A stretch of DNA of 40,584 bases from an uncultured virus (IMG/VR IMGVR_UViG_3300021256_000060) (lineage: Duplodnaviria; Heunggongvirae; Uroviricota; Caudoviricetes), in IMG/VR virus record IMGVR_UViG_3300021256_000060. One strand, 5' to 3'. Below the pieces are notes generated by a model. It saw only the letters and a list, made by a program, of their open reading frames with translations. It searched no databases and was not told the DNA's origin. A program made the translations under genes and the position numbers. This document shows, piece after piece, positions 6,289 through 29,382 of this stretch (the first letter of the stretch is position 1; each line of letters opens with the position of its first letter).

Positions 6289-7686
6289 TTATTTTAAATT
6301 TTCGTTCTGTTGAATTAGCTTTCCAGCATCTTCAAGATTATCTACTTTGATAGGTTCTGGGTTGACAACAACCTCTTCATCTACATTGTCTATATCTACT
6401 TCAAACATCAACGGGTCTGTATCTTTTTTCGGAATATCACCGCGCCGGGCATCTGCTGCGTAATTGATGAACTTCTCTCTGTCCTCGTCATTATGTATAA
6501 CCAGGTCCATAGTCTCATTAGCTACTAAACGAATCTCTTTCTGAGCTGATGAATGACAACGGAGCTGTAAGAACTTTGCCCAGTTAGTATAGGTCATAGT
6601 CATAAGCAGTTGAGTAGTTACATTACTAGGCAACCATGCTCTAGCATCTTCTTTGGTTATCTTATTACTGATTAGATATTTATACATAATGAAGGGATCA
6701 TTCTCTTTAATCTTCTCACGTACGTATCCAAAATAAGGATGATCTTTATAACGTTCACTATAGTTCATGATTATAGGATCTACAAAGTCTACCTTCTTAT
6801 TATAATCATGAGTTACATAGCGTTGACTCTCTTGAGAAATACCATTGCGATGACGAACCAGCTGATGAGAACATGTACGGCTGATATCATGGAAATGGAA
6901 AGTAAGAGTAGCTACCTTGTAGGTATCATTCAAACCAAATCCATATTCATATAGAATATCTCTAATCTTCTTAAGAGGAGATTGATAAACGAGATCTACT
7001 CGTTCTCCTTCTATCTCTTCTGGATCAGTGTACTCACATTCAGCAGTATAATTATCAGTACTATCTTTAGACTCTCTAGGATTCTTAACCTGAGTAATTT
7101 CATCCTTAGTGAGTTTTATATCTCCATCTCCTAAATAAGTACACTTATCTTCTGCTAAGTAACAGTGTTCAATAGCACTAATGAGGAAGCACTTCTCATA
7201 AGTATGATACATTGCCTCTTCAATCCAAGGGAGGAATCGATTATCATATTTTACTTCTCTTAAGAGATGCAGCCAAGCTCGTGCACTACCACCAATAAGG
7301 AGTGCTGTTGCATCCACACTCTCTCTAACAGATACATTGCAGTATTTAGCCTGAGCAAGGATATCAGCGAAGTCTGCAGGATATAGAGAGATATTATGAT
7401 TAGGAATAGAGAGGATAACAATAGCATTGGTGTGTTCCATTACCGATTCGTGTCCTCTACGAGCTACCTTCTCAATATATTTCATTCTAGCTTCATTATC
7501 ACCTTCTATTGGAAGTTTACCAATGCAAATTCTAGCCCCTCTATTGGCTAGATATACATTTGGGTTTACATGCACCACTCTTAGCATATCGTCATGATAT
7601 GGAATAAAAGTATCTTCCACAGGCTTAATAGTAGTAGTATTAGAACTACCAAAAATTTTGTTCATTAGATCTTTTAAGATACCCAT
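6289..7686 (-). CDS. thyX: FAD-dependent thymidylate synthase, long form
   Basis: Motifs RGHESVMEH, ISRTCSHQLVRHRNGISQESQRYV, KEDARAWLP and FLQLRCHSSAQKEIR. Start moved to the ATG at 7686, which has RBS AAGGAG 8 nt upstream. Confidence 0.93.
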   Translation of the reverse strand: MGILKDLMNKIFGSSNTTTIKPVEDTFIPYHDDMLRVVHVNPNVYLANRGARICIGKLPIEGDNEARMKYIEKVARRGHESVMEHTNAIVILSIPNHNISLYPADFADILAQAKYCNVSVRESVDATALLIGGSARAWLHLLREVKYDNRFLPWIEEAMYHTYEKCFLISAIEHCYLAEDKCTYLGDGDIKLTKDEITQVKNPRESKDSTDNYTAECEYTDPEEIEGERVDLVYQSPLKKIRDILYEYGFGLNDTYKVATLTFHFHDISRTCSHQLVRHRNGISQESQRYVTHDYNKKVDFVDPIIMNYSERYKDHPYFGYVREKIKENDPFIMYKYLISNKITKEDARAWLPSNVTTQLLMTMTYTNWAKFLQLRCHSSAQKEIRLVANETMDLVIHNDEDREKFINYAADARRGDIPKKDTDPLMFEVDIDNVDEEVVVNPEPIKVDNLEDAGKLIQQNENLK

Positions 7687-14895: not shown

Positions 14896-15375
14896 TTATC
14901 TTCTCCTTATTCTACGTTCAAACTCTTCTTTGCATATATGATTACAGAAATGAAGATTTCCTAATCTATATACGTAATATAATCCTGATCCTACAATTAT
15001 GGGAGTATTACATATAGGACAGTTTACTGTTTTCTTCTCATCTATGGTTATTACATGAGCATGGATATTATCATCATTGAATACAATATCGAATGGAGTT
15101 GTCCTATAAAACTCAGTAATATCAATGGTATAATCGAATAGTACATACAACTTGTTTATTTGATATACGTCGTGTACTGATAATATAGCTAGTCTATTCT
15201 CGACTCCATTCACAATCAATATAGGAACTTCCCCGTTTTCTACAATGGGAGGATATCCAACTAATCTAGTATATTTAGAAACAAGAGCGTTTAGGCTTAC
15301 TAGTTTCATATCGTTTGATAAATCTGTACTAGGATTAGTGATAATAATAGGATCTCCCCGATTTTCTACAATCAT
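14896..15375 (-). CDS. Zinc-finger protein (C-terminal TRASH/MYM-like)
   Basis: NCPICNT...HFCNHICK; shares IVFNDDNIHAHV with IIFGPDGIHAHV of the neighbour; RBS AGGAG. Confidence 0.75.
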   Translation of the reverse strand: MIVENRGDPIIITNPSTDLSNDMKLVSLNALVSKYTRLVGYPPIVENGEVPILIVNGVENRLAILSVHDVYQINKLYVLFDYTIDITEFYRTTPFDIVFNDDNIHAHVITIDEKKTVNCPICNTPIIVGSGLYYVYRLGNLHFCNHICKEEFERRIRRR

Positions 15376-15431
15376 TAATCTTCATCTCCTGATTAAAAAA
15401 GTTTATTGATTTGATATAGCTTTAAGATGAT

Positions 15432-15456
15432 GGACTACTCCTAAATGGAGTAGTCC
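15432..15456. other. Hairpin in a divergent intergenic region
   Basis: GGACTACTCC-taaat-GGAGTAGTCC. Confidence 0.55.
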
Positions 15457-15467
15457 TATTCACCCTA

Positions 15468-15519
15468 TTCATTATTATAGTATATATTCATTTTTAATAT
15501 TGTCTAAGACAGTCCTATA
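15468..15519. promoter_or_regulatory. Divergent promoter pair: early-type (minus) and late-type (plus)
   Basis: Minus strand ATATACTATA-ataa-TGAA (15485-15468); plus strand GACA-gtccta-TA (15508-15519). Confidence 0.55.
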
Positions 15520-15548: not shown

Positions 15549-16403
15549 ATGAAATCTATTAATCTTATATGGGTACCAAATATAAAGGAGATTACTAGTG
15601 ATAGTATTCCTATATATAGGGGTAATGGAGATCATATAGTAAAGATCATAGAGAAAATAAAAGAGAATTGTCAAAAAGATGAATTAGATATACCTCTCTA
15701 TATGGATGAGTATTCTAAAGAGAATAATCGTGTATCTCTTCTTCTTACAATATCAGATTATCTGAATGAAGAAGATAATGATGCTGAGGTGACTCAATAC
15801 TTTGTTCTTCCTTATGGCCAGATTACCAAGATAAAAGACTTTGATAAGTTATCCAAATCTGTACAAACTCTATGTGATAACTATTTGGAATCACTTACTA
15901 AGGATATTGATTCTACTAAGTCTATACTTTCTAAGGACGAGGCTAAGCTTAGTACATTAGACCCTAATCCTGATATTGATTTAGATAAGAAGCTTTGCTT
16001 ACTTACAGAGATTGGATTCTGTTATGCTGCTATACAATCATATATGAATGATCATGAAGAAGAGATCCAGGATAGTTTCAATGATGCTATTAAAGAGTCT
16101 AGAGAAGAGGCTATTGAGGAAGAAGAGATTAGAACTGAGCTAGATATGATCAACTCTTCTATTAAGAGCATTCTAAAGGATAAAAAGGAATTTGAAAATG
16201 AAGAGTTTGTTCGTTGTATTTATAATCAACACGAAATCTCTCAGATTGATATGATAGAAGAACTCTCTTCTCATTACGTTCCTGAGTATATGCCTAAGAT
16301 TAAGAATATCAATGATACTCTAAATGATGAATATGAGATAGAAACTACTCATCTTATTATCACTAGAGATATTGGTGGTGGATTACGGTTAAAAAGAAAG
16401 TGA
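15549..16403 (+). CDS. Acidic hypothetical protein immediately upstream of the array
   Basis: 284 aa, RBS AAGGAGG, D/E-rich and helical. Confidence 0.85.
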   Translation: MKSINLIWVPNIKEITSDSIPIYRGNGDHIVKIIEKIKENCQKDELDIPLYMDEYSKENNRVSLLLTISDYLNEEDNDAEVTQYFVLPYGQITKIKDFDKLSKSVQTLCDNYLESLTKDIDSTKSILSKDEAKLSTLDPNPDIDLDKKLCLLTEIGFCYAAIQSYMNDHEEEIQDSFNDAIKESREEAIEEEEIRTELDMINSSIKSILKDKKEFENEEFVRCIYNQHEISQIDMIEELSSHYVPEYMPKIKNINDTLNDEYEIETTHLIITRDIGGGLRLKRK

Positions 16404-16420
16404 TAATCACTATTAGCTAT

Positions 16421-17262
16421 TAACCAATATAGTGGATAAAGTGAACTGTCCAGATTTATATCTATTAAAGAATATAATGGACTAAAGGACTGAAATTCTA
16501 TATCAAAGGACAAATGTAACTATCAAAAAGTAGTTCAATGAAGAAGTGGAATGAAACTGCCAAGGAGTATACCAATACATTTTGTCTAATGCAGAATAAT
16601 TAAACGAATCCAATTTAGTGAGTGAATGCATTATTATAGGTTTTATCCAATTATGCATATTAATGAAAATGATGCTTTAGAAACCAATTACAAGATGAAA
16701 TGAACTACCACTATATATGACCAATGCGAGAACAGAGTGAGCTTAAGCCTATTAAACCAATAGTGCGTTGAAAAACGGATTATATTTTATAATATCAATG
16801 ATTCGATATAATGGACTGATATTCTATACTATTAATGAGTCGATAAAATGAATTACAATGATCAATATCAATAGGAGTAAAAATGTAATAAAAATCATAT
16901 GTCAATAATATAGTTATTGTACTGATACTGCCAAACTAATGAGCACGTAAATGATTATTTATTTTTACCACATAGCAATATTCCAATTAGTGAGAAAAGT
17001 GAACTAATATTACTAAACATAATTAAAGGAGAGAAATGTAATAAAATCCTACAAACCAATATAACCATGCAATGAAATGCAAATTACTATACCGATGATG
17101 AAAGTGATTGAATGGAATATAATAGAATTCAATAAAAAGGATAACTGGATTAGTATATTTATTTACAATACATGACCAAACTGAACTGAATATAATGAAA
17201 TCAATAGACACACTCAATGAAATAGGATAATGTAAGACCAATATATAAAATAACTGAATAAT
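16421..17262 (+). ncRNA. TIGR-like tandem interspaced guide RNA array (about 23 units, period about 36-37 nt)
   Basis: YCAAT-like motif at 16424, 16461, 16497, 16535, 16572, 16610, 16647, 16684, 16721, 16757, 16795, 16832, 16868, 16902, 16936, 16983, 17019, 17056, 17092, 17129, 17165, 17201 and 17238, each followed 15-18 nt later by an RTGRAYT-like motif. The segments between motifs are largely unique and there is no credible ORF. Confidence 0.75.
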
Positions 17263-17276
17263 AGGAGGTAATTAGG

Positions 17277-17918
17277 TTGTTCTCAAAAAATAATAAATAC
17301 TGGTTCTGGAAATTTCGTAAACGTATTAGAGATAGGGAGAAGGTAGATCCTAACTTTAAATCTCCGTTGATCAAAGAAGCTGATGGACCTAAAGCCATAT
17401 GTCCGAAATGTGGACGTATTTTCGCTACTAGAGAGATACATGGCCAAAGAACTAAATTCTGCTCCAAAGAATGCTATTACCAATACCTACGTGACCTCTC
17501 TTCTAATAACCCATTAGAGAGACAGGCTAATGGGCGTAATAAACTTCATCCTGACAGGATACGTATGCAGAAACTGCTTGGACGTTTATTGAATCAAGAT
17601 GAGATGGTATATCGAATTGGAGATATGCCCAATGATATACGTGTCATGACTAGACAAGATATCGGTAAGCTTACTAACAATAAGAACAATCGGTTTAAGT
17701 TAGTAGAAGATGGAAACTACATGGCTCATGTAGTAGATAATACTGAGAGTAAACTCCATGGTATATGCCCAGTTTGCTCATCTGAATTTATAAAGAAGAA
17801 TCCTAAACAGGTGTTCTGTTCTAAGAGCTGTGCCTCTCATGTCAAGGTACATAAGAAGAAACAAGATATGGCTAACCTAAAGCAGATAGCATACTATGTT
17901 GATAGGGATAAACGATAG
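17277..17918 (+). CDS. Zinc-finger protein with a degenerate HNH_3-like segment
   Basis: Two CPxC...FCSKxC fingers flank HPDRIRMQKLLGRLLNQDEMVYRIGD, which resembles HRxxMExxLGRxLxxxExVHHxD with the HH replaced by YR. TTG start with RBS AGGAGG. Confidence 0.7.
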   Translation: MFSKNNKYWFWKFRKRIRDREKVDPNFKSPLIKEADGPKAICPKCGRIFATREIHGQRTKFCSKECYYQYLRDLSSNNPLERQANGRNKLHPDRIRMQKLLGRLLNQDEMVYRIGDMPNDIRVMTRQDIGKLTNNKNNRFKLVEDGNYMAHVVDNTESKLHGICPVCSSEFIKKNPKQVFCSKSCASHVKVHKKKQDMANLKQIAYYVDRDKR

Positions 17919-17925
17919 GATAGTT

Positions 17926-18056
17926 ATATACTATAGAATTGAGAAACAAGGAAGTTTCTCAAGGCTCTCTCGACGTAGTCATATCCCTTGCTAAACCCTT
18001 GACTACGCAACACAACTATAAAAAAGATAGGGCTTCTTCCTCCCTATCTTTTTTAT
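17926..18056 (+). ncRNA. Candidate small RNA: early-type promoter, two hairpins, terminator
   Basis: ATATACTATA-gaat-TGAG promoter motif; stems 17939-17962 and 17974-18007; terminator stem AAAAAGATAGGG/CCCTATCTTTTT; no ORF. Confidence 0.45.
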
Positions 18057-18143
18057 TTTTTATCATATAAATAACTAGATGATAACAAGTAATAGTCCCA
18101 CTTCACTATTATTTGTTCAATCATTGGTCTATTTCATTTATAT

Positions 18144-18179
18144 TGGGTAGGCTATTATTTAGCCTACCCCTCTCTTTTT
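18144..18179 (+). terminator. Terminator-like hairpin
   Basis: GGGTAGGCTA/TAGCCTACCC followed by ctctcTTTTT. Confidence 0.55.
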
Positions 18180-18191
18180 GACATCTTAGTA
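18180..18191 (+). promoter_or_regulatory. Putative late phage promoter
   Basis: GACA-tcttag-TA upstream of the endolysin RBS. Confidence 0.6.
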
Positions 18192-18224
18192 CTAAATAAA
18201 TGTAGTATAAAAGGAGGAATAGAA

Positions 18225-18851
18225 ATGAGCTGGAAAGTTAACTTAAAAGAAGTATACCAGATGGCTAGAGATGCCTACTGGAATCTCTGGAATACTGCTA
18301 AGAGAAATGGCAGAGATGTGAAGGTAGTGCTGCATTGGGCAGCTTCACGCTATCAGTCAGTATTTGATGATTACCATATCAATATCACTGGTGATGGTAC
18401 ATTGTATGCGACGCATGATTTTGATACCACCCTAAGTCATACCTGGCATAAGAATAGCGGTGCTATTGGTGTCAGCCTTAGTTGTGCGTATGGAGCTACG
18501 AGCAATGATATTGGGGATTATCCTCCAACTCCAGAGCAAATCGAACAGATGGCAAGAGTAATTACTGTTCTCTGTGATGCTCTCGATCTTACTATTGATA
18601 TTAAACGTGTTCCTACTCATGGTGAGGCTGCCGATAATGCCGACGGCGACTATTCCGCTTATGGTGATGACGAATGCTATGGGGTGTTAAATGGATGTGA
18701 ACGATGGGACCTGCAGTATCTTGCTACAAATGAGTCTCCTGTATTCTTGAAGGATTATGACGATCCTCGTACTGGTGGTAACATTTTGAGAGCTAAAGCT
18801 AATTGGTATCGTAATCGTTGGAAGGAGCACCCTGAAGAAAGACCATACTAA
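18225..18851 (+). CDS. N-acetylmuramoyl-L-alanine amidase (Amidase_2 family), probable endolysin
   Basis: VVLHWAA, YHINITGDG, SHTWHKNSGAIGVSL, PTPEQIEQM, VPTHGEAAD and RWDL motifs; RBS AAAGGAGG. Confidence 0.88.
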   Translation: MSWKVNLKEVYQMARDAYWNLWNTAKRNGRDVKVVLHWAASRYQSVFDDYHINITGDGTLYATHDFDTTLSHTWHKNSGAIGVSLSCAYGATSNDIGDYPPTPEQIEQMARVITVLCDALDLTIDIKRVPTHGEAADNADGDYSAYGDDECYGVLNGCERWDLQYLATNESPVFLKDYDDPRTGGNILRAKANWYRNRWKEHPEERPY

Positions 18852-18869
18852 TAGTCATTAACTACTAGA

Positions 18870-18899
18870 CAATGAGGTAGGTAATAAACCTACCTCATT
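18870..18899. terminator. Terminator-like hairpin after the amidase
   Basis: AATGAGGTAGGT-aataa-ACCTACCTCATT. Confidence 0.6.
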
Positions 18900-18922
18900 A
18901 ATTTAATATAGGATGTGAATAC

Positions 18923-19192
18923 GTGATGAGGATTTTTCTTTATACATTAATGGTATTGATATCACTTTGTTTAGGTTTTATTACTGAGTTATGTCTTAGT
19001 GATGCTGTTATGGGTCCAATTGCATTACGATATATCAATATAATGATTAATGGAATAGTAATGCTATGCTTACTTGGCATGATGCTTCTAATGTCTTATA
19101 ATATCTATTATAAAGATAGATTAGATTATATGATTCTAACCATAATAGTATTCTTTTCATATATAGGATTTGGGTTCTATATCAATAGATGA
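18923..19192 (+). CDS. Small protein with three hydrophobic segments, candidate holin
   Basis: 89 aa with three predicted TM helices directly after the amidase; holin role inferred from context only. Confidence 0.5.
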   Translation: MMRIFLYTLMVLISLCLGFITELCLSDAVMGPIALRYINIMINGIVMLCLLGMMLLMSYNIYYKDRLDYMILTIIVFFSYIGFGFYINR

Positions 19193-19221
19193 AAAAGAGG
19201 TAGACCATGATGGTCTACCTC
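19192..19221 (-). terminator. Intrinsic terminator of the RNAP gene
   Basis: GAGGTAGACCA/TGGTCTACCTC stem followed by TTTTT on the minus strand; lies between convergent genes. Confidence 0.7.
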
Positions 19222-19228
19222 CTCTATA

Positions 19229-22200
19229 TTATTTTTTATCTTCGTCTTCTATGCCATCCATAAGTATCTCTTGGATCATTCTAGGCTTTATTCCTAGCTC
19301 CTGTTGTGCCTGTCTGGCCAATTCTATAAGCCCCTTATTGATCAGACCATTAGTCATACAGCTAGACACCATACGACCAAAGACGCCTGTAGAGGTAAGG
19401 AATGCACTGACGTACTCATTTGGGCGATACTCAGAGGTGGCTTCTTCCCCTTTAGGGATAAGTGTAGATACTACACCTTTCAGACCAGATAGGTATACTA
19501 TCTTATCTCCTGATGCTAGCTTATCCACAGTCTTCAAATAAAATTCTAGGCGCACGCCCTCTAAATTTTTGAGCTTGCCCTCTTGAGGAAGTTTATAAGA
19601 TGGTTCGAGTTCGTACTCTTTATCTATCTTATAATCTCTCATTACCTTTTTGAGTTTATTAACCTTAGATTCATATTTCTTACAGATATGCTGTAAAGTA
19701 TCACTCAATTTATTCATCTCTACTGTGCGGTATACTTTGATATCTTGTACGATACCACTTACTTTAGCATGAACTTTCTTACGTCCAATATCAGATAATA
19801 TTTCATTACCTTTAGTAAGACTCTTAAGAATAGCTGCTGCATCTTCTTCTTCGGCAGTATCAGAGAAGATAATAAGAGGTTCTCCTTCTTGTACTTCTTG
19901 TCCTACTTCTACCATATGGAAAACGTTAGCGTAAGATGCTAGTGATACATCTTTTTGCACTACTAACTCAAAAGCCAATGCTTCAGAAATAGTATGGTCT
20001 ACTACGCAAGAGTCTTCGAAACCCATTGCTGTATTAAGTATACCTACCTTAGCAAGAGTACCGATATTGTAACTAATATCGTTAGGATCTTTTCCATTAT
20101 TTCCTACTGATGGTGAATAGGATGATTTGTTGTAGGCGACGATATCGTTGTATTTGATCTTACTACCTTTTTTAATGCCAACATTAGGATCAAGCTTAGT
20201 AGTAATATAGAAGCCACCGTCACTATTCTTTTGAATAGTCTCACGAAGATCAATGTAATCACACTCCTTAGTATCATCATCTTGTAATACTATGTATTGA
20301 TCCGTGACTTCTTTAACAGTTCCTCTCTTTCCTTTAAACTTATAAGAGAATTTATTAGAGGTAAGATATGGCAAAGCCTGATCAGCACCAGTAGTAATAA
20401 GATTCGGCATACTCTTTTTAATCATCATTTGATGTTGTACTGTCTGAGTGAAGCCCATTGCTGTACGCATTGGGTCATCTCGATTTACTGCAAGAGGAGT
20501 CATAGCCTCCATGATAGAGAATGTAGATAGATTATCTAAATCCTTGTTCTTAGAAGGAGTAATGAACCCACGCTTGTTACGTACACCAGCATCTATTGTA
20601 GTCTGACGATTGATACCTACAGTGCCAGCGAAACCTGTAGATAGAGATAATACACCAAGCATAGACTCATCATACGTTCTCTTTTCCATACTGAAGGCTC
20701 GTTCAGAGTTCATACCAGATAAACCCTTGAATGTTACCTTAGCTGCAGATTCTGCTTCTAGTAATGGAGATAGAGTAGATAGATCTGAAGAAGTCTGGTC
20801 ATGAGTCAGGATACTATCTATAACTGCTGACTTCTTGCAAGTGAAAGATACACTACCTTTGTTACGTTTAACCCCATTACGATAAGCACCATACTCTTTA
20901 GCCAATACACTATATAGATGGGCAACAATAACTTCATTTACACGAAGTCTGTTACCAGTGATATCTGAATGACGGTTAAACTTAGTGTCTGTTAGCAAGC
21001 TACTAGCATATAGTAGAGCATCAATATACTCATGAGGAATATGCAGTATCTTACAGATCTCTACAGTAATAGGATCCATCATCAGATCTGCAAAGTTATC
21101 CAGACCATCAGCTTTAATCCTCCCGCCATAGTCATCTAATACCCCTAACCACATATCTTTGCTATTGATCTCACCAATACTATATTCAGTGGTATCAAAC
21201 TGCATCATGCCATTCATGAGCATATTATCAGCATCAGATCTAGGATAGTAGATCATATAGCCATCATTGAACTTGATATAGTTTTGACCCTTTGCTGGTC
21301 TCTTTTCAGAAAATTCGTATTTGATACCAACCTTATTAAGCACCTTTTGTAATCCAATAGTATATGCAGCTACTACAATAACAGGAATCGTCATATTTAG
21401 TATGGACGCTTCTGAGAACATTAGCCTATTAGCTACTGCTGAAGCAGCATATAATTCCTTGAACCTATCTGACTTCTCTCCAAGAAGTTCTTTGATATAT
21501 TCATCTGCTGGCATATCAGAAGGGATTGGAATTCTCTTACCATCCTTTACATAAATAGCTAGATATTTCTTAGCAAGATCTTCTTCCTTAAGTTTCTGAT
21601 CTTCTTTAGGAAGACCAGTTCTATCAATAGGAATCTTAGATAGATTATCCATATTGAAAGAAATATAGCTATGATCCTTAAAGGAAATGGTACTAAATAG
21701 AGATGCCAAATCAATAAATGATACTGGTAAGACGTAGTTGTTAGATACCTTACTATTGTCGCCAGGGATTACTTTGAAATCATTACCATCCCACTTAGAT
21801 AATACCTTCATTATCTTATTAACTACTGGAGTGGATTTACCAAACCCAGAAGGAGATTTCCGTCTAATGAAGATTTTATTGTAGTTGGATACTATCTGTA
21901 CAGTATCTCTATCAGTCTTTTCTATAGGAAGAAGCATCAACTGACCAATGAGTACTTTCTCATTACCACGGAGTTTCATAAAGCGACTACCAATCATACG
22001 AGGAATATCTACTTTAACAGTAGATCTCTTACCATTCTCTGCATCCTCATATTGAACAGTCCATGTATCTACATAATCTTCACTAGTAGATGTATTCTCT
22101 ACGTCAATGGAGATAATATTCATAGGATGTGTAGTAGTGGTAAAGTGCTTAAACATAGCCACGATATCAGCTTGCATATCCTCTTTCGTATATATCTCAT

Positions 22201-23689
22201 TAAAGTTAGGGAACTTAACGTGTTTCCAATGATCATCAATAGAATCTATTGGTAATGCAGTTTCAGGAATATCATCATTGGATTCAAACTGCTTAATTAT
22301 ATCAGATACTTTCTTTCCTCTAATTTGCTTTTTAAGTAGCTCTTTTTGCATGGCATCATATCTATCTGCTCTAGCCTTATCCATTTTGATACCATCTTCT
22401 GCTTGAAGAGAAAGCAATAGTTCTTTAAATTTCTCCTCTTCTTCAGCATCATTACTAGTATCTAATTCCTTTTCTGCGTCGTCCATAGTAGTAGCCTTAT
22501 CTGCTATAGCATCAAGCTTATCTACTAACTCATCTCTCTTCAACTCTATATCAGTTTTGGAGTCATCATCTTCACTATCAATATCTTTCTTAACTAAGTT
22601 AGTGATATTGATACCTCCATTTGCTAATTTAAGAGCAAGGTGATTCATTATAACTAGTTTACTGTCCTTATCTATGAATTCGGCTTTAGAGAAATCATTC
22701 CTAGCCATTCTAGTAATAAGGTTAATGAGTTTTGGTACATCGGTATTGTAGTTGAAGTTTTCACCAAGTCTAAAAGTGAAGAAACCACCATTAGAGATAA
22801 TACAGATAAGACTCTTCTTCCAATCAGTGAATCTATCTATTCTCATTTTAAGAGATCTATATAAGAGACTGATAGGATTAGTATTCTCTTCATGATTGAG
22901 TATATTAGTAGACCCTTTAGCCCAATCATCGAAAGGAATAATAATAGTTCTCTTAGTATAATCACCAAATCTGTTATCACTTAGGAATCTAGATACGAAT
23001 GCACCAAAGAGATCTAGCGCTCTATCACCTTTATACATTCCCTTATTTTGGAAGAATAATTCAGTATAGTAACTCAGGTCATAGAATAAGTTTCTATTCT
23101 TATATAGAGATGGATTAACAAACGTATATTTCAGTTGAGGAACTTGTTCTTTAACCTTCTCATAGAGTTTCATTACTTCTTGCTGATTCTTCAATCTACC
23201 AGAGTATAGCATCTTTTTAAAGACTGAGGTTAGGTTATACTGACCATATTTAGTTTTAAGATTCTCTTCTTGTAACACATCTTCATTTAGTACTTCATCT
23301 ACAAAGTCATTGAAGAATACTCTATTATGAGTTTCATTCGTAGAGTAATTCATACTAGCCTTGAAAAGTGATACATCATTATCTCCTAAAGAAAGAGACT
23401 CTTGAAGAGTAGAGAGAGCATCATAGTTCTCTCCATTAATAATTAATTGATTATCTTCATTGAGCTTTTTATTTATAATCATCTCTACATTCTTTTCCAA
23501 GAAGTAAGACTGGAAGTTGTAAGAATTATTACCAGCATTCTTCGAATTCATCACTGAAATAGAAGATTGCATATTAGGGGTCATCAAATAAACCAAACTA
23601 CCATTCATTCTATTAGTGGGGTCTATAGGAAATCTATATTGACCCTTGTACATTGTGAGAGTTTTAGTCTCATCAAGATATACAGCCAT
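19229..23689 (-). CDS. rpoB: Phage multisubunit RNA polymerase beta-like subunit, single chain (probably virion RNAP)
   Basis: RpoB-like motifs: KVTFKGLSGM, NRDDPMRTAMGFTQ (cf. HDDANRALMGANMQ), GFEDSCVV (cf. NFEDAI), VEVGQEVQEGEPL, SGDKIVYLSGLKGVVS (cf. GDKxxxRHGNKGVVS) and GVFGRM (cf. GVPSRM). Highly divergent phage-type homolog with a long N-terminal extension. Confidence 0.92.
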   Translation of the reverse strand: MAVYLDETKTLTMYKGQYRFPIDPTNRMNGSLVYLMTPNMQSSISVMNSKNAGNNSYNFQSYFLEKNVEMIINKKLNEDNQLIINGENYDALSTLQESLSLGDNDVSLFKASMNYSTNETHNRVFFNDFVDEVLNEDVLQEENLKTKYGQYNLTSVFKKMLYSGRLKNQQEVMKLYEKVKEQVPQLKYTFVNPSLYKNRNLFYDLSYYTELFFQNKGMYKGDRALDLFGAFVSRFLSDNRFGDYTKRTIIIPFDDWAKGSTNILNHEENTNPISLLYRSLKMRIDRFTDWKKSLICIISNGGFFTFRLGENFNYNTDVPKLINLITRMARNDFSKAEFIDKDSKLVIMNHLALKLANGGINITNLVKKDIDSEDDDSKTDIELKRDELVDKLDAIADKATTMDDAEKELDTSNDAEEEEKFKELLLSLQAEDGIKMDKARADRYDAMQKELLKKQIRGKKVSDIIKQFESNDDIPETALPIDSIDDHWKHVKFPNFNEIYTKEDMQADIVAMFKHFTTTTHPMNIISIDVENTSTSEDYVDTWTVQYEDAENGKRSTVKVDIPRMIGSRFMKLRGNEKVLIGQLMLLPIEKTDRDTVQIVSNYNKIFIRRKSPSGFGKSTPVVNKIMKVLSKWDGNDFKVIPGDNSKVSNNYVLPVSFIDLASLFSTISFKDHSYISFNMDNLSKIPIDRTGLPKEDQKLKEEDLAKKYLAIYVKDGKRIPIPSDMPADEYIKELLGEKSDRFKELYAASAVANRLMFSEASILNMTIPVIVVAAYTIGLQKVLNKVGIKYEFSEKRPAKGQNYIKFNDGYMIYYPRSDADNMLMNGMMQFDTTEYSIGEINSKDMWLGVLDDYGGRIKADGLDNFADLMMDPITVEICKILHIPHEYIDALLYASSLLTDTKFNRHSDITGNRLRVNEVIVAHLYSVLAKEYGAYRNGVKRNKGSVSFTCKKSAVIDSILTHDQTSSDLSTLSPLLEAESAAKVTFKGLSGMNSERAFSMEKRTYDESMLGVLSLSTGFAGTVGINRQTTIDAGVRNKRGFITPSKNKDLDNLSTFSIMEAMTPLAVNRDDPMRTAMGFTQTVQHQMMIKKSMPNLITTGADQALPYLTSNKFSYKFKGKRGTVKEVTDQYIVLQDDDTKECDYIDLRETIQKNSDGGFYITTKLDPNVGIKKGSKIKYNDIVAYNKSSYSPSVGNNGKDPNDISYNIGTLAKVGILNTAMGFEDSCVVDHTISEALAFELVVQKDVSLASYANVFHMVEVGQEVQEGEPLIIFSDTAEEEDAAAILKSLTKGNEILSDIGRKKVHAKVSGIVQDIKVYRTVEMNKLSDTLQHICKKYESKVNKLKKVMRDYKIDKEYELEPSYKLPQEGKLKNLEGVRLEFYLKTVDKLASGDKIVYLSGLKGVVSTLIPKGEEATSEYRPNEYVSAFLTSTGVFGRMVSSCMTNGLINKGLIELARQAQQELGIKPRMIQEILMDGIEDEDKK

Positions 23690-23718
23690 AAGAATACCTC
23701 CTCAAATGATTACGATAT

Positions 23719-23773
23719 TATGACAATGTCACCCATACCATTATTAACTTGAGGCATATATTATAATAGTGAG
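23719..23773. promoter_or_regulatory. Divergent promoter pair: late-type (minus, RNAP gene) and early-type (plus)
   Basis: Minus strand GACA-ttgtca-TA (23730-23719); plus strand ATATATTATA-atag-TGAG (23756-23773). Confidence 0.6.
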
Positions 23774-23785
23774 GAGGTGAAATGG

Positions 23786-23959
23786 ATGAAATCTAACGCT
23801 TGTTCGCACTGCATATGCTCAATCTGCGAGGATAAGGGATGCGTTGAATGTGCATTATGTAAAGGGCGATACAAGACAGACAGCTGCTCGGAAGCGTTTA
23901 TAACTCCGAGAAAAAGGAAGAAGACAAATGATCGAAAGACTACCAATCGAAGACAGTAA
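23786..23959 (+). CDS. Small cysteine-rich protein
   Basis: ATG at 23786 with RBS GAGGAGG; CSHCICSICEDKGCVECALC...C followed by a basic tail. Confidence 0.6.
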   Translation: MKSNACSHCICSICEDKGCVECALCKGRYKTDSCSEAFITPRKRKKTNDRKTTNRRQ

Positions 23960-24008
23960 TCGTGGGTAGAGAATTGTCAATCTCTACCAAAGGAAGGAGA
24001 AATTAGTA

Positions 24009-24464
24009 ATGAGTAACAAAGGACATGTGTCAATCGGTGACGAACTTTTATTCGAATTCAAATTGCCAGCAAATTGGACTAAGGAAGCACTATACAATAG
24101 ACTCAGAGATGAGATAGGAGCTGCAGAGGGAGGAGCAGCTGCATTGTCTAAGAATAGAATCAGATTCTATATGAAGATAAAGGGTTATGTAGATCCAAAC
24201 ATTGTTCCTGAAGAACTGGCTTGCTTAGCTTGCCCTAAGAGATCTAGTTATCGTCGTTATGATGATTATAATGGACTTAGAGGTGTTAAACAACCAGTAT
24301 TGGTATTAGATTCTGATTACGTTGATTTCCGTGATTATAATATAATGTGCTCTTACTATACTGACTTAGGAGATGGAACTGAGTTTGATAACAATATCGA
24401 AGTCTGGGCAGATAGATCTAGCATCTGGAGATGGATTGGAAGAAAAACTGGGTTCTGCGCTTAA
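24009..24464 (+). CDS. Hypothetical protein
   Basis: 151 aa, RBS AAGGAG. Confidence 0.8.
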   Translation: MSNKGHVSIGDELLFEFKLPANWTKEALYNRLRDEIGAAEGGAAALSKNRIRFYMKIKGYVDPNIVPEELACLACPKRSSYRRYDDYNGLRGVKQPVLVLDSDYVDFRDYNIMCSYYTDLGDGTEFDNNIEVWADRSSIWRWIGRKTGFCA

Positions 24465-24516
24465 AAATTAAATACCCCCCAACACCAAAATAACCAATTA
24501 AGAGAGGAGAATAGTA

Positions 24517-24663
24517 ATGGAGAAAACAGAATTTCTTAAACTAATCTCTAACCTATCTAGGGATCAAATTCAGCAAGTAATCAAAGAAAAAGAAAAATGC
24601 AGAAAGATGATTTATCCAGCAGTGTATATCTGTAGGGATAAGAAAAAGGAGGATAAGAAATGA
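24517..24663 (+). CDS. Small hypothetical protein, 48 aa (below the ORF-track cutoff)
   Basis: MEKTEFLKLISNLSRDQIQQVIKEKEKCRKMIYPAVYICRDKKKEDKK*; RBS GAGGAG; stop overlaps the next start (ATGA); AACA-ccaaaa-TA motif at 24481-24492. Confidence 0.75.
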   Translation: MEKTEFLKLISNLSRDQIQQVIKEKEKCRKMIYPAVYICRDKKKEDKK

Positions 24664-24896
24664 GTTTATTGTATGATTACTTCTTACCTGTATTATACAA
24701 TATCTTATTTATTTATATTCTCTTAAATGGATTAAGCGATAAGAAGTGGATAGACGTTCCTATACGTCTATTCGTTATTTGTCCGTTAGTTTGGTCCATC
24801 TTACACTTTGGGATTATCGTCGTTATAGTCACAGTAATATTATCAATACTAATCATATATTCGAAATTCTTTGGTGAGAATACAGGGGGTAATTAA
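24660..24896 (+). CDS. Small membrane protein
   Basis: 78 aa, two to three hydrophobic segments, RBS AAGGAGG. Confidence 0.75.
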   Translation: MSLLYDYFLPVLYNILFIYILLNGLSDKKWIDVPIRLFVICPLVWSILHFGIIVVIVTVILSILIIYSKFFGENTGGN

Positions 24897-24897
24897 A

Positions 24898-25476
24898 ATG
24901 CCGATGACAGTAGAACAAGTAATAGCTCAAATTCAGCAGTCTAGACGGATGGCTGATGAAGCTGGTAAGAGAACGTATGATACTAAAAGTCAAAAGAATG
25001 AGCTAGCAGTAATGACTGCTATGCTTAATGACTGTTCCTATCAGGTAGGAGTATATAACAACTCAGGATATCAGGGGTTGTATTGTCCTGCTCAGTCATT
25101 CCGCAGACTAGTATCTAACTCAATGGCAGCAATGACTGGTATGAGTAGAATGGAAACTGATGGCTTAGTATCTAAGTATGAATTTGGTCCAAATGATTCT
25201 AAGGAGATGATTAACTTCTCTAAAGAGTTCATTCATACTTATCTCAAGACTGGTAGAAAGCTACCATTAGGTGGACGAGAGGCTAGTAATATTAGCCTAA
25301 TGCTAAAACAGGTTCCTGGAGGTACAGTCTCTTACCCAGTAAAGGTAGGAGAAGATTCTCAAGGTCATGCAATCTGTGAGTCCAAGACTGCCTATGTAGG
25401 AGCATATGAAACAGTCAAGGTATACGGTCCTTGTCCAGCATGGAAAAAAGAAGAGGTTAAAAACGGTAATAAATGA
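24898..25476 (+). CDS. Hypothetical phage protein
   Basis: Start moved to the ATG at 24898 (RBS AGGGGG); globular, with motifs FSKEFIHTYLKTGRKLPLGGRE and KVYGPCPAW. Confidence 0.8.
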   Translation: MPMTVEQVIAQIQQSRRMADEAGKRTYDTKSQKNELAVMTAMLNDCSYQVGVYNNSGYQGLYCPAQSFRRLVSNSMAAMTGMSRMETDGLVSKYEFGPNDSKEMINFSKEFIHTYLKTGRKLPLGGREASNISLMLKQVPGGTVSYPVKVGEDSQGHAICESKTAYVGAYETVKVYGPCPAWKKEEVKNGNK

Positions 25477-25490
25477 GGAAGTAATATAAA

Positions 25491-26513
25491 ATGGATGTCG
25501 TAATATTCCCAAATGCAAGAAATGTAGGGGTAATGCCTCCTACCAATATCCTCACTAGTAATCTTATTCAGATGACTACTAAGGATATGGACAACATACT
25601 CAAGTTCCATAAAAAACAAAAGATAACCAATATCATTTTCAGATATGGGGATCCTATGGATATTGGAATAGAGTTCTTCATGCATCTATTAGATAAGTTA
25701 GACAGTGATCCTAAGTATGAGAAGACTAGAGTTACTATTGAGAGTCCTCTTATCTCATTCTTAAAAAGGTATGGGGCATGGAAGAATGTAATAGATCACA
25801 ATCGTGTTCTAGTAAAAGCTACATTCAATTATGGAGAAAAGGAGAGTAGCGGTAGATTCTTCTCTGATTCGAATCTAATGGATGCCTATTCTAGATTTTG
25901 GTACAGCTTCCATTATCGTCCTGTGTTAATCTACTATAAGAGTTTTGACAATACTAAATATGCATCTCATATGGAAAGATTAGCTCTGATGCTAAAAACT
26001 ACATTAGAGGTTAGAGACACTACAACTTCAAAAGATGATTGGTGCAAAAATGAGGCCTTCTACTTGAATGATTCATATCGGTATACGACGTCTCATGTAT
26101 GGTTTGATAATAATCCATCTAAGTATGAATCTAACTCTGAGATGGAGGTCCATAACATCGAAAAGAAAAGGGATGAGGTTGCAACTAAACTCAAAGAGAG
26201 ATCAGAGAAAGCAGAACGACAAGCAGAAGCTCGTAGAAAAGAAGAAGAACGAGAGAATGCTATACTTAAGTCTATAAAAGTCTCTAAAGAAATCCAAGAG
26301 CTCAATAAACCAAAAGCAGTCACTAAAAAGAAGCGTACTACTACTAAACCCAATTCAGGATTTACTAAGGAACAAAAGGAACAGCTTCATATTATTAGAG
26401 ACAAGACTGTTAGTAAGTTGAATAGCGAGGTTTCTACTAAGAAACATGTAAAGCATCATATTGATCTCTACGAAGCAATAGAGAAGTTCAGGGCTACTAA
26501 TAACTTAGGTTAA
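25491..26513 (+). CDS. Degenerate radical-SAM-fold protein lacking CxxxCxxC
   Basis: MDVVIFP start, NIIFRYGDPM (cf. GGDPL), WKNVIDHNRVLVKATFNYG and FHYRPVLI follow the order of motifs I recall from jumbo-phage radical-SAM proteins, but the cluster cysteines are absent; charged C-terminal tail. Confidence 0.55.
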   Translation: MDVVIFPNARNVGVMPPTNILTSNLIQMTTKDMDNILKFHKKQKITNIIFRYGDPMDIGIEFFMHLLDKLDSDPKYEKTRVTIESPLISFLKRYGAWKNVIDHNRVLVKATFNYGEKESSGRFFSDSNLMDAYSRFWYSFHYRPVLIYYKSFDNTKYASHMERLALMLKTTLEVRDTTTSKDDWCKNEAFYLNDSYRYTTSHVWFDNNPSKYESNSEMEVHNIEKKRDEVATKLKERSEKAERQAEARRKEEERENAILKSIKVSKEIQELNKPKAVTKKKRTTTKPNSGFTKEQKEQLHIIRDKTVSKLNSEVSTKKHVKHHIDLYEAIEKFRATNNLG

Positions 26514-26525
26514 GAGGGTATTGCA

Positions 26526-26948
26526 ATGGGGAAGTATCATAATGTGATTCACAATATTCAAGAGTTGGTTGATAATATTAGTTCTGATTCTGGTATAAAT
26601 AAGATATTATCACGAGGAGTAGAAGAATACATATCATCCATTCTTGATGAGATACTAGATTCCAACCCAGATATATTTGGTGAGACAAATCACATGTCTT
26701 ACTTCTATGAGAATCATTTGGGGTACGAGGTTATATTTGAAAATATTGGCAAGGTCCAAATATATACCTTTAGATGTGGGAAGGTCGATATCAATCTAGA
26801 AAAAGAATTGGTACGATCTTTGTGGGAAGTCTATACTTGTAGTGCTGATGCTGAAGATAAATCCATCAGCCAAAATGATGCTAACCATTTCGCTAATATT
26901 ATGAAGTCATACTTCGATGTATCAGAAGTTCCTGTATTGACTAATTAA
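26526..26948 (+). CDS. Hypothetical protein
   Basis: 140 aa, RBS AAGAGGG. Confidence 0.75.
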   Translation: MGKYHNVIHNIQELVDNISSDSGINKILSRGVEEYISSILDEILDSNPDIFGETNHMSYFYENHLGYEVIFENIGKVQIYTFRCGKVDINLEKELVRSLWEVYTCSADAEDKSISQNDANHFANIMKSYFDVSEVPVLTN

Positions 26949-26962
26949 AAAGCGAAATGAGC

Positions 26963-26980
26963 ATATATTATATTATTGAG
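26963..26980 (+). promoter_or_regulatory. Putative early phage promoter of the Tas-like gene
   Basis: ATATATTATA-ttat-TGAG, followed by the leader hairpin GAGATGG/CCATCTC. Confidence 0.6.
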
Positions 26981-27047
26981 ATGGATTGGTCACCATCTCG
27001 CGACTATATTTGTATAAGCTACATAGTAGCTGAAAGGGGTATTAGAA

Positions 27048-29318
27048 ATGAAATTAATTAACCACGTTGAGCCAATCATGCAGCTCTTGAACTCCCCTCA
27101 TGTAGGCCAGTTCTTAGAGTTCGAAGAAGGAGGTAATATCTCTAAGAGTGATATTGAACACTTTGTACTGGTTCATCTCTCCCATCCTGGAGAACTTGAT
27201 AATCTGCTTGATGTGAAAAAGAAGGCTAAGAAGAAGGCAGTTGTCGAAGAGGAAGAAGATGTATCTGAGGAAGATGTGGTAAACATGTCTGAAGCGGAGA
27301 CTCTTCAGTTGATTCGTCGTATCCGTAAAATCAACTGCCCGTCAATCAATGTGCTTAAAGACAATGGTTGGTTCCTTTGCCCGATCTATGTTGGTGTAAC
27401 TGAGCTTCGTCCTTTGATTTGCAAGAAGCTTCCTGCAAAAAAAGGATACAAACTGGTTATCTTAGATGCATCTATTGGCAATATTGAGGGTCTCTTCACT
27501 AAAGACAATCTTAAGGAATGGGAACTCAATTCCATGCGTAAGCTGGATATGCACTTTGATAATAGTGGTCTTGGCTTCAAGTCCATGAGTGTGTTCATTC
27601 ATAAGAAGGATGATATCTTCACCAAACGTATGCGTAATGCAGTAAATCGTTTAGAAACCACTCAGCGTACTCGTATTAAGTTGGGTAATATACTGGTAGA
27701 TGAGGTTATCAGTATCGTTGGTCAGGAAGCTTATATTAACAATAAGCAGAATCTGGCTAAGAGCAACAAGTCCAAGTCTTCTGTTACTGAATACGATACC
27801 AATGACGTAAAGATCATCAAATATATTGAGAAGGCATATAAGCGTATCAATAAGACAGCTGAGAAGATGGACGTGAAGACTCCTATTCGTCGTCATAAAT
27901 CTTTTGACGCTGTTATAGAACAGATTATAGCCGAAGAGAAACTTGAGCATCAGGATCGTGCAAACGCTTGGCTCAAGTCTATCAATGATGGAGTTGCTAA
28001 TTTAGAGGCTTGGAAGAATGCTTCCAATGGTAATACTGGTATGCCTACCTTAGAGTATGCTATGAGCGTTGTCCGCAATGAGATTGATGAATCTCAGAAA
28101 GGTGATGAAGCGATCGATATCCAGAAGCTTGCTCAGGAATGGATCGATAATGTCAAAGTTGGTATTAATAAGCTCAAGGACTGGAAGGAATCCTATAAGC
28201 AGAATCTCATTGATGAAGGAGAAGATGAGGAAACTATCAGTGTGCCGGATATGCCGACAATGGAAGATGCTCTAGCTGAAACTAAGCAGCTTGGCGTTCA
28301 TGACTACATTGAATCGTTCCTCACCTATGTAAACGTACAGAACTACATGCAGTATGTGAAATCTGAAAAGGATGCTGAACTGGTAGTAAATGAATTGGTT
28401 CATGAATCCTATCTCTGGGAATATATTGAAGGTATTAAGGGCTGTGGTGAGATCACTGCAGCATATATCCTTTCTGATATTGATTTCCGCAGCACTGTTC
28501 ATGCATCTTCAGTAGTTAGATATCTCGGTCTTGATAATATCACTACTGTTCCTGATCGTGAAGGCAAACCTGTTAGTGAAGAGCAGTTGCCGTTGATTAT
28601 TCGTTTCCTGTTCCATAACTATAATCTCATCCGTACTAGAGAAGATAATTCTGATCAGGATGATATCGGTGTTCTGCCTCCGATTAGTGAAGATACATTC
28701 TATCGTTATGCTTCTGAAATGGTCGAGGATTGGAGCGAGTATAAGGCTATCGAAAAGGTTATTAAGACTAAGGGAGTCAATAAGATGGATCCCCATAAGA
28801 TCTTAGAACTGGATACCAACTTTGCTGAACTCGTGCAGAAAGTATGGGAACATTGTGATATTATTGAATATCGCAATCAGCGTGGTGAGATGATTCCTAC
28901 AATTAAGAAGCATGCTCGTTCCAAGAAAGATAGTGTTGTTACTACGTTCTTGGATAAGAACGGTAATATCTCCACTAAGAAGAGCCTTGGCTATAATACC
29001 AAACTCAAGGCTAGAATCATTGAGATCATGTTTGGTTCTATGATGAAGGCTAAGAATGAGTTCTATTATGGTGAACTCTATCTCGGATTCAGAGAACGTA
29101 AAGTTAATGAATATCTTGCTCAAGGTAAAGATCCTGAGATTCATAAGAATCATATCCATATGCAGGCTCGTCGTTATGCAGTACAAATATTCATTGAGAA
29201 TCTGTGGATGTGGGTTCGTCAGAAAAAGGGCTGGCCAACGAATGGTGGTACCTATTACGAGGCTAAACTCAAAGGTACTCATGGTCATGGCTTAGCTATG
29301 AATAGCCCACTTAATTAA
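27048..29318 (+). CDS. Nop-domain / IS110-C-terminal-like RNA-binding protein, TIGR-associated Tas-like (no recognisable nuclease)
   Basis: Coiled-coil motif MRNAVNRLETTQRTRIKLGNIL; Transposase_20/Nop-like motif YIEGIKGCGEITAAYILSDID...SSVVRYLGLD; C-terminal YNTKLKARI...HIHMQARRYAVQIFIENLW...GWP...YYEAKL...HGH. No IS110 DEDD RuvC motif seen at the N-terminus. Confidence 0.8.
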   Translation: MKLINHVEPIMQLLNSPHVGQFLEFEEGGNISKSDIEHFVLVHLSHPGELDNLLDVKKKAKKKAVVEEEEDVSEEDVVNMSEAETLQLIRRIRKINCPSINVLKDNGWFLCPIYVGVTELRPLICKKLPAKKGYKLVILDASIGNIEGLFTKDNLKEWELNSMRKLDMHFDNSGLGFKSMSVFIHKKDDIFTKRMRNAVNRLETTQRTRIKLGNILVDEVISIVGQEAYINNKQNLAKSNKSKSSVTEYDTNDVKIIKYIEKAYKRINKTAEKMDVKTPIRRHKSFDAVIEQIIAEEKLEHQDRANAWLKSINDGVANLEAWKNASNGNTGMPTLEYAMSVVRNEIDESQKGDEAIDIQKLAQEWIDNVKVGINKLKDWKESYKQNLIDEGEDEETISVPDMPTMEDALAETKQLGVHDYIESFLTYVNVQNYMQYVKSEKDAELVVNELVHESYLWEYIEGIKGCGEITAAYILSDIDFRSTVHASSVVRYLGLDNITTVPDREGKPVSEEQLPLIIRFLFHNYNLIRTREDNSDQDDIGVLPPISEDTFYRYASEMVEDWSEYKAIEKVIKTKGVNKMDPHKILELDTNFAELVQKVWEHCDIIEYRNQRGEMIPTIKKHARSKKDSVVTTFLDKNGNISTKKSLGYNTKLKARIIEIMFGSMMKAKNEFYYGELYLGFRERKVNEYLAQGKDPEIHKNHIHMQARRYAVQIFIENLWMWVRQKKGWPTNGGTYYEAKLKGTHGHGLAMNSPLN

Positions 29319-29344
29319 GTTAGCTGTTGTTTAACATAAATTAG

Positions 29345-29382
29345 TGAGGAGAGTCGTAATGACTCTCCTCATATTTTTTTTT
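29345..29382 (+). terminator. Intrinsic terminator of the Tas-like gene
   Basis: TGAGGAGAGTC/GACTCTCCTCA stem followed by a T9 run. Confidence 0.85.

Follow-up and report, generated by a model that had tools for sequence, protein, structure and literature searches.

The window analysed here is a stretch of 40,584 nucleotides (nt) from an uncultured virus of the Caudoviricetes (IMG/VR record IMGVR_UViG_3300021256_000060) and looks like part of a jumbo phage. It probably holds two components of a dispersed TIGR-Tas system of that phage (TIGR standing for tandem interspaced guide RNA): a TIGR-like dual-repeat array, A1 (16421-17271, + strand), and, at a distance of almost 10 kb, a gene for a 756-amino-acid (aa) protein of the Tas family (27048-29318, + strand; stop codon 29316-29318), referred to below as tas. 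The nearest record, the genome G001 (266,420 bp, CheckV 100% complete), is 92-98% identical to the window, encodes a protein identical to the 756-aa Tas-like protein and contains array A1 at 94% identity, together with three further arrays of the same type (A2-A4). Neither the array region (blastn) nor the Tas-like protein (tblastn) matched any of 50,697 phage records.

Anatomy of array A1

A preliminary description of this DNA, made from the letters alone, had placed a TIGR-like array between an acidic gene and a zinc-finger gene. A1 does lie in the 873-nt gap between a 284-aa acidic open reading frame (ORF) and a 213-aa ORF with zinc-finger segments. The gap is periodic and contains no + strand ORF of at least 50 aa. 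Its self-match is highest at a lag of 37 nt, where it reaches 0.384 compared with a mean of 0.311 (z 3.5); there are additional peaks at lags of 36, 73 and 74. Anchored on CCAAT, 23 units can be delimited from 16421 onwards, 22 of them 35-38 nt long and one 43 nt; the resulting period of 36-38 nt is no multiple of three. Each unit consists, in order, of an edge repeat A..CCAAT (8 nt), a spacer A of about 10 nt, a loop repeat A(A/C)TG.A (6-9 nt) and a variable stretch of about 10-13 nt, which is assumed to include spacer B. The last unit and the ribosome-binding site of the zinc-finger ORF overlap.

When the 23 units of the window were pooled with 26 units from arrays A2-A4 of G001, TG was found at offset 19-21 from the unit start in 47/49 units and at exactly 20 in 35/49, which makes the variable stretch 10 nt long. 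In a logo of 43 units, CCAAT and A.TG.A were prominent, the positions between them carried about 0-0.3 bits and the roughly 13 nt that follow were nearly uninformative. Since the units were selected by their CCAAT anchor, the anchor is inflated in the logo; the TG, which lies 12 positions beyond it, played no part in the selection. The pattern CAAT-N9-11-ANTG occurs 52 times in the window, compared with 24.8 +/- 4.9 times in shuffled sequences (0/100 shuffles reach 52), and 18 of the 52 matches fall on the + strand within 16425-17256, the array making up 2% of the window. The array RNA is predicted to fold no better than shuffled sequences (z +1.62; 20/20 shuffles fold at least equally well), and scans of the array region returned no Rfam family and no tRNA.

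This geometry, box C, spacer and box D, is that of a dual-repeat TIGR array. As described by Faure et al. (2025, PMC12045711), such arrays have two alternating repeats of 8-12 nt, named edge and loop, and spacers of 9 nt, occasionally up to 12, and are processed into 36-nt TIGR RNAs (tigRNAs). Box C is a CCA just before each spacer and box D a UG just after it, and the motifs of both repeats covary. For spacer A the window unit fits this definition, reading CCA-AU-N10-AA-UG. The positions of a second box C/D pair carry at most 0.4 bits in the logo, leaving spacer A flanked and spacer B with no visible flanks. As the second pair is not visibly conserved, the guide would be asymmetric.

The Tas-like protein

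The AlphaFold (AF2) model of the 756-aa protein has a predicted local distance difference test (pLDDT) score of 81 and comprises three parts. Residues 1-185 (27048-27602, + strand) form an alpha/beta domain, for which a separate model was made with the N-terminal 190 residues folded alone. Residues 186-729 (27603-29234, + strand) form a coiled-coil hairpin and an RNA-binding domain of the Nop/IS110 type that contains large insertions. The last helix is followed by a tail of 27 aa (29235-29318, + strand), in which some alignment columns are invariant. The best structural alignment obtained with VIA-align was to TasR (9mty_B; Z 17.2, root-mean-square deviation 2.1 A, 195 aa, 20% identity), followed by TasH (Z 14.8-15.9). 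The bridge-RNA recombinases IS621 and ISCro4 aligned at Z 10.3-10.9 (model residues 185-727 only), unrelated coiled coils at Z 9.9 or less and Nop56/58 at Z ~8. A Foldseek search with the model gave nothing at E <=0.001; its top eight matches were TasH chains (E 5e-3 to 2e-2, probability >=0.99), and TasR ranked tenth. A profile of the family, compared with 177,635 distinct PDB sequences, matched TasR (E 4.8e-5) and TasH (E 1.2e-3). These were the only significant matches and two of the three listed at E up to 10. A match to MreB, the only one from a single-sequence PDB search, was judged to be due to chance.

The 756-aa ORF is thus a Tas-family Nop-domain protein, and the two central assignments of the preliminary description, a TIGR-like array and a Tas-like gene, are borne out by the unit geometry on one side and by the TasR alignment and the profile matches on the other. 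The protein also matches Pfam Transposase_20 weakly (E 0.0075) and PHROG 4285, labelled 'transposase' (E 1.9e-10), because its RNA-binding domain is shared with IS110 proteins. The Pfam scan gave no match to PF01548 (DEDD, RuvC-like). The nearest Atlas clusters are Transposase_20 proteins from Patescibacteria and phages. Twenty-five homologs of 505-741 aa (32-73% identity) were collected from contigs of up to 318 kb; none is named and none has a precomputed Pfam domain. A profile search of 1.84 billion representatives yielded 1161 relatives at E <=0.001, about two dozen of which are full-length large forms. Most of the relatives measure 270-500 aa, the typical size of Tas proteins, and match the C-terminal domains.

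The N-terminal domain model (pLDDT 80.2) was compared with 48,161 PDB chains; the best match reached Z 2.7 and none reached Z 5, and no Pfam nuclease family was detected in this domain. With its residues matching no known fold, the domain is not recognisable as a RuvC or HNH nuclease. It may nevertheless be a nuclease, a missing match being no proof that there is none. Its invariant residues include E37, H38, H43, E75, D105, W108 and H185, and E37, H38, H43, D105 and H185 are compatible with an enzymatic role that the domain may have.

In the C-terminal tail Y736, Y737, K740 and H745 are invariant in 26/26 family members, and H747 is nearly so. SpTasH cuts its tigRNA precursor through Y289 and H296, which lie in a flexible C-terminal region (PMC13421893), and a Y/H loop marks dual-repeat Tas proteins and is missing in stem-loop Tas proteins (Xu et al. 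2026, bioRxiv 10.64898/2026.09.09.750476). The profile alignment to TasH ends before its Y289/H296. By analogy, the tail is a candidate tigRNA-processing loop equivalent to that of SpTasH. A homodimer prediction for residues 186-460 scored 0.33, against a mark of 0.42.

A single locus in G001 matches Transposase_20 or the canonical Tas of the L019 locus described below, and no match to Pfam Nop (PF01798) or fibrillarin (PF01269) was found in G001 at E up to 1. The preliminary description had considered that another Nop-domain gene elsewhere might be the true partner of the array; in G001 these searches found this one Tas-like locus only.

Relatives of the Tas-like protein

The only other relative found in IMG/VR is a 477-aa protein encoded by a 202-kb phage contig with terminal repeats (G002, locus L019). 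It aligns with the Tas-like protein of the window at 35-36% identity in two segments (E 1e-11). At L019 9341-11960 the Tas gene is directly followed by about 30 dual-repeat units of 36 nt with spacers of 8-10 nt, in which AGTAAACC and AGTTACCC alternate; 16/17 matches to the unit pattern in the whole G002 record fall there. Because a canonical array stands beside this homolog, the family is tied to TIGR arrays, with adjacency as the usual state. The L019 locus shares with the window a homologous Nop core, a dual-repeat array with 36-nt units, a large phage genome and a tail of the form TYxxAKL....H. It differs in the size of its Tas, in having a single, adjacent array and in the resemblance of its two repeats to each other. 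Towards the 3' end of the L019 array one repeat degenerates and the other stays conserved.

A scan of metagenomes gave six loci, with useful flanks only in L021 and L025; a scan of genome contigs found no relative. A 42-nt periodicity in locus L023 was considered as an array and ruled out, as it is a coding repeat.

Further arrays in the reference genome

One array and one effector had been proposed in the preliminary description, a count that had to be revised: a scan of the rest of G001 brought the number of arrays to four. A2 (G001 41411-41665, + strand) has 7 units of the A1 type, A3 (G001 86186-85680, - strand) has 14 and A4 (G001 46946-46760, - strand) has 5-6. None of the three comes closer to tas than ~43 kb, in either direction round the genome. 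A hidden Markov model of the unit found nothing in G001 beyond the four arrays, matches outside them being isolated and at E >=3.3. A2-A4 are likely to be present in the window's own genome too. When IMG/VR was scanned with the unit pattern, 49 loci were returned, and chains of at least five units occurred only in the four G001 loci (12, 11, 7 and 5 units). Of the remainder, two loci had 4 units, one had 3 and 42 had 2; these short chains look like chance matches or coding repeats.

The genes flanking the four arrays show no homology among one another. The 284-aa and 213-aa ORFs beside A1, whose co-occurrence with the array in related jumbo phages had been suggested as a check, accordingly have no homologs beside A2-A4.

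One guide is common to A1 (window 16681-16717) and A2 (G001 41591-41628), and was first noticed as a 35-nt BLAST match of 91%. Its spacer B, ACCACTATATA, is identical at 11/11 positions, its spacer A, beginning TACAAGA, agrees at the first 7/10, and the surrounding repeats differ. Compared with the window, the array of contigs from two other studies is altered by about one unit each, in one case by a net 36 nt (50 nt skipped, 14 nt inserted) and in the other by 35 nt. The array changes unit-wise between strains. In A3, units resembling TAAATGTATA alternate with units that combine a sequence like ATAATTTAT with one like ACTATCCACAGGT, giving a higher-order repeat of ~73 nt. It is as if A3 arose from a two-unit block that was duplicated about five times and later diverged.

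Separation of the arrays from tas and transcription context

Between the end of A1 and the start codon of tas lie 9,772 nt, in agreement with the ~10 kb given by the preliminary description, with at least six ORFs and an RNA polymerase gene in between. The latter encodes a 1486-aa multisubunit RNA-polymerase beta-like protein (19229-23689, - strand; PHROG 14872, E 4e-122). Nothing array-like was found in the window beside tas, as had been claimed, or inside it. A 13.8-kb contig of another study runs from the array to tas with the order unchanged.

The array and tas are preceded by different promoter motifs. A late-type motif, GACA-N6-TA (15508-15519, + strand), stands 41 nt before the 284-aa ORF (15549-16403, + strand), the first gene of the transcription unit that contains A1. 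A scan for intrinsic terminators on the + strand found none in 15549-17918, and the first terminator-like hairpin with a T run downstream of the unit is at 18145-18179 (+ strand). Upstream of tas there is an early-type motif, TATATTAT-ATTATT-G (26964-26978, + strand), followed by a hairpin, GAGATGG...CCATCTC (26978-26999, + strand); a terminator-like hairpin with a T run follows the gene (29344-29382, + strand). Both motifs were read directly. They confirm what had been noted earlier about the motifs before the array and tas, and the terminator scan agrees with the earlier remark that no terminator precedes the array.

Both motif classes recur in G001. GACA-N6-TA occurs 26 times in the 14,970 nt of 128 upstream regions, compared with 2.4 expected, and TATAYTA(T/G/A)-N6-G precedes 30 genes. 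The former resembles the late consensus of phage AR9, AACA-(6N)-TA/G, and the latter, as TATAYTAT-N6-G, matches the AR9 early consensus, AAATATATATTAT-(6N)-G, as these are given in PMC5312081. For each class 25 genes were compared with PHROGs. Three genes with both motifs were counted as late, and a 5640-aa protein (too long), a gene spanning two loci and tas were left out. In the late set 16/25 genes belonged to a PHROG family, among them nine for head, tail, virion or lysis functions and four for RNA-polymerase subunits. The early set, made up mostly of small genes, had a PHROG family in 3/25, none of them structural. The labels late and early are reasonable, since gene content separates by motif class.

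An early-type motif of its own lies 60 nt upstream of the first unit of A3, and a terminator follows ~170 nt beyond the last. A2 closes an operon that opens with a gene behind an early-type motif, and a terminator comes directly after the array; A4 has a terminator ~70 nt downstream. All four arrays are co-oriented with the gene upstream. Judged by these motifs, guides seem to be supplied in both early and late phases. The proposal that array and effector belong to different temporal classes therefore stands for A1 and tas, both motif classes being real, and does not extend to the system as a whole, because A3 has an early-type promoter like that of tas.

A GC-containing hairpin is often found directly after early-type promoters, at the predicted start site. 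Such promoter-hairpin pairs occur in the window at 15430-15490 (- strand) before a 159-aa gene (14896-15375) and at 26964-26999 (+ strand) before tas, and in G001 at 86187-86246 (- strand) before A3. Early transcripts may have this hairpin in common as a 5' RNA element. Between A3 and its terminator (G001 85447-85680, - strand) there are a second early-type motif, a ribosome-binding site and an ORF of ~35 aa. Next comes the late-type motif of a gene for a 361-aa endonuclease-like protein (PHROG 15137, E 1.4e-46).

Comparison with known systems

Dual-repeat TIGR-Tas systems (SpTasH, TaTasR, FpTasA; PMC12045711) share many features with the one presented here. Both are phage-borne and have a Nop-domain effector with a coiled coil, units of ~36 nt in which two short repeats alternate and two short stretches vary, a spacer with a box C (CCA) in front of it and a box D (UG) behind it, and an unstructured precursor; the invariant Tyr/His-rich C-terminal tail of the window protein may correspond to the processing loop of SpTasH. 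The differences concern the arrays, the effector and the repeats. Here the arrays are remote from tas, A1 by 9.8 kb and the others by tens of kb or more in G001. A1 thus lies neither beside nor inside tas, the placement that serves as the published criterion of a TIGR-Tas locus, which is operational and not mechanistic. Four arrays are spread over separate transcription units, and early-type as well as late-type promoters occur among them. At 756 aa, compared with ~230-330 aa for solved Tas chains, the effector is larger; it has long insertions in the coiled coil and the Nop domain, and carries a new N-terminal domain that, unlike the nuclease domains of TasR and TasH, is not recognisable as RuvC or HNH. 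One box C and one box D are conserved per unit, and spacer A is 10 nt long.

RNA-guided repression has been shown for TasA (Xu et al. 2026). Like TasA and the dead-TasR repressors of that report, the window protein has no recognisable active nuclease, and a regulatory DNA-binding role is plausible; the position of their arrays relative to tas is likewise flexible. The arrays of that report were found upstream or downstream of tas or in the gene itself, in the <=10 kb searched, whereas the arrays here are remote. Many of the former belong to the stem-loop type and go with proteins that have no Y/H loop, in contrast to the dual-repeat type found here. The recombinases of the IS110/IS621 group share the fold of the RNA-binding domain, as the alignments above indicate. 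Unlike them, the present system has no recognisable DEDD/RuvC-like domain and no single two-loop bridge RNA, and has arrays of short units instead.

Proposed mechanism and alternative explanations

From the features described above we infer transcription and processing of the arrays, their pairing with the Tas-like protein, DNA targeting and the targets themselves. A1 would be transcribed on the + strand from the late-type promoter at 15508, as part of the unit that begins there. A2-A4 would also be transcribed, A3 from its own early-type promoter and A2 and A4 at the 3' ends of operons. A single Tas-like protein, made from an early-type promoter, would act in trans, its Nop domain binding CCAAU (box C) and AAUG (box D). 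The C-terminal Tyr/His tail would probably cut the precursor in the edge repeat to yield RNAs of ~37 nt, whose variable stretches (10 nt and ~10-13 nt) would guide the complex to complementary DNA. Given that no RuvC or HNH nuclease is recognisable, the likeliest output would be RNA-guided binding with repression or occlusion, as for TasA, or an activity of the new N-terminal domain. A bolder version, in which one early-made Tas is loaded in turn with guide sets from arrays with early-type and late-type promoters across the 266-kb genome, producing a time-programmed RNA-guided activity with a new N-terminal domain and with guides made asymmetric by a single strong C/D-flanked spacer in each unit, is a tentative proposal that we regard as doubtful.

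Several observations weigh against a dispersed TIGR-Tas system. The repeats are degenerate, with a perfect CCAAT in only 10/23 window units. Each unit conserves a single CCA and a single UG; a clear box C/CCA is missing from the loop repeat, and a clear box D/UG from the edge repeat. A2-A4 were seen in G001 and not in the window's own assembly. The spacers of A3 are alike in the 73-nt two-unit pattern and look duplicated rather than acquired. A search of G001 for self-targets, in which a match to spacer A with at most one mismatch had to be accompanied by at least 7 nt of the B stretch within 30 nt, returned 255 matches, compared with 186-236 in five shuffled pairings, and gave no signal. Among the metagenomic relatives, L021 (45% identity) has no array in 10 kb upstream and 2.3 kb downstream of tas, and L025 (43% identity) has none in 1 kb upstream and 6.9 kb downstream. 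Ten studies of ruminant and other gut metagenomes contain the window sequence, in runs of DNA or of unrecorded kind, and none of the 20 runs listed for it is on record as RNA.

Some of these points would be explained if the arrays were unrelated to Tas, being iterons, a partition or packaging site, binding sites of another protein or a sponge or decoy RNA, and if Tas worked with no array or with another RNA. Arrays and protein are paired here by likeness only, the second box C/D pair is missing, a branch of Tas proteins with no detectable arrays exists according to Xu et al. (2026), and the flanks read at L021 and L025 contain none. The period and the CCA-10 nt-UG spacing are, however, those of TIGR units, and the unit motif is strand-specific. 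All four arrays (4/4) are co-oriented with transcription, one with its own promoter and terminator. G001 offers a single candidate partner gene, and the L019 homolog adjoins a canonical array. We therefore regard it as unlikely that the arrays are unrelated to Tas.

The arrays might instead be what is left of a TIGR system that formerly adjoined tas, was scattered by rearrangement and is now decaying and disused. The degeneracy of the repeats would fit, the match to CCAAT covering at most 3/5 positions in 6/23 window units, as would the substitutions between the window and G001, which are about as frequent in the edge core (6/115) as in spacer A (8/213), numbers too small to show selection. 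Decay accords poorly with the recurrence of the same two motifs and the 10-nt spacing in four arrays, with insertions and deletions between strains that are unit-sized and preserve the register, with the promoter and terminator retained by A3, and with a Nop core and C-terminal tail that are invariant across 26 members of the tas family. This makes disuse quite improbable. Guidance of RNA modification or cleavage in the manner of a box C/D small nucleolar ribonucleoprotein, in place of DNA binding, is suggested by the one spacer between box C and box D, as in half a small nucleolar RNA, by the Nop domain common to Nop5/56/58 (Z ~8) and by an N-terminal domain with no fold match that could be or recruit an enzyme, yet it is very improbable in view of a fold that resembles Nop56/58 far less than it does the DNA-targeting TasR and TasH, no fibrillarin found in G001, no match to the Pfam Nop family and no kink-turn-type GA motifs in the arrays.

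Novelty and implications

TIGR-Tas itself is known; what appears to be new is the remote, multiple arrays, which we infer to act in trans. Also new are the connection of the arrays to two promoter classes, a 756-aa Tas with an N-terminal domain that matches nothing, and the asymmetric repeats. Our literature search found nothing on tigRNA in jumbo phages or on orphan TIGR arrays, though TIGRSafari or the bioRxiv supplements may list this system. Neither the contig names nor four peptides of the 756-aa family occur in the searched part of Table S1 of Faure et al., which is a weak indication.

Published mining used flanks of 5 kb (Faure 2025, PMC12045711) or of up to 10 kb, of which a median of 5.4 kb was recovered (Xu 2026, bioRxiv 10.64898/2026.09.09.750476). 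With A1 ~10 kb and A2-A4 far from tas, searches limited to the neighbourhood would miss these arrays, as the preliminary description had anticipated for A1, most of which lies outside either flank. The published catalogues, restricted to the surroundings of tas, report arrays at 6,685/20,096 loci. Roughly two-thirds of the published tas loci have no detected array, and many of these may have remote guides if it is common for dispersed arrays to act in trans. With guides at distances between 10 kb and over 40 kb from their presumed effector, array searches should span whole genomes. The biology of TIGR-Tas is young, and natural targets, array origin and regulation are the questions of the field. 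The present phage is a natural setting in which to ask whether the supply of guides is timed in the course of infection, and adds a large Tas form with a new N-terminal domain and asymmetric repeats.

Other features of the window and of G001

The 284-aa ORF upstream of A1 has only a sub-threshold Pfam match, to HTH_54 (E 0.0096; 16.5 bits against a cut-off of 32.3), and no match in PHROGs. The 213-aa ORF directly downstream of A1 (17277-17918, + strand; TTG start) has two Cys-rich zinc-finger segments. Its PHROG matches are limited to the zinc-finger parts of HNH-endonuclease families (best E 2.5e-9), and every Pfam match is under the cut-off. An endolysin is encoded at 18225-18851 (+ strand).

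At the left end of the window an open-ended ORF of 1338 aa (1-4015, - strand) appears to be part of a giant ORF of 5640 aa in G001 (222326-239248, - strand), which sits behind a late-type motif. Within it, BLAST against G001 at E 1e-20 finds no counterpart of the segment at 1517-3200, which has thus diverged. To the right of tas, a 2428-aa ORF with internal repeats occupies 29577-36863 (- strand), and the G001 record stops inside it, at window position 30739. The last 124-289 nt of G001 also match the window at 32005-32293 and 33724-33847, so the end of the G001 record is probably an assembly break at a repeat.

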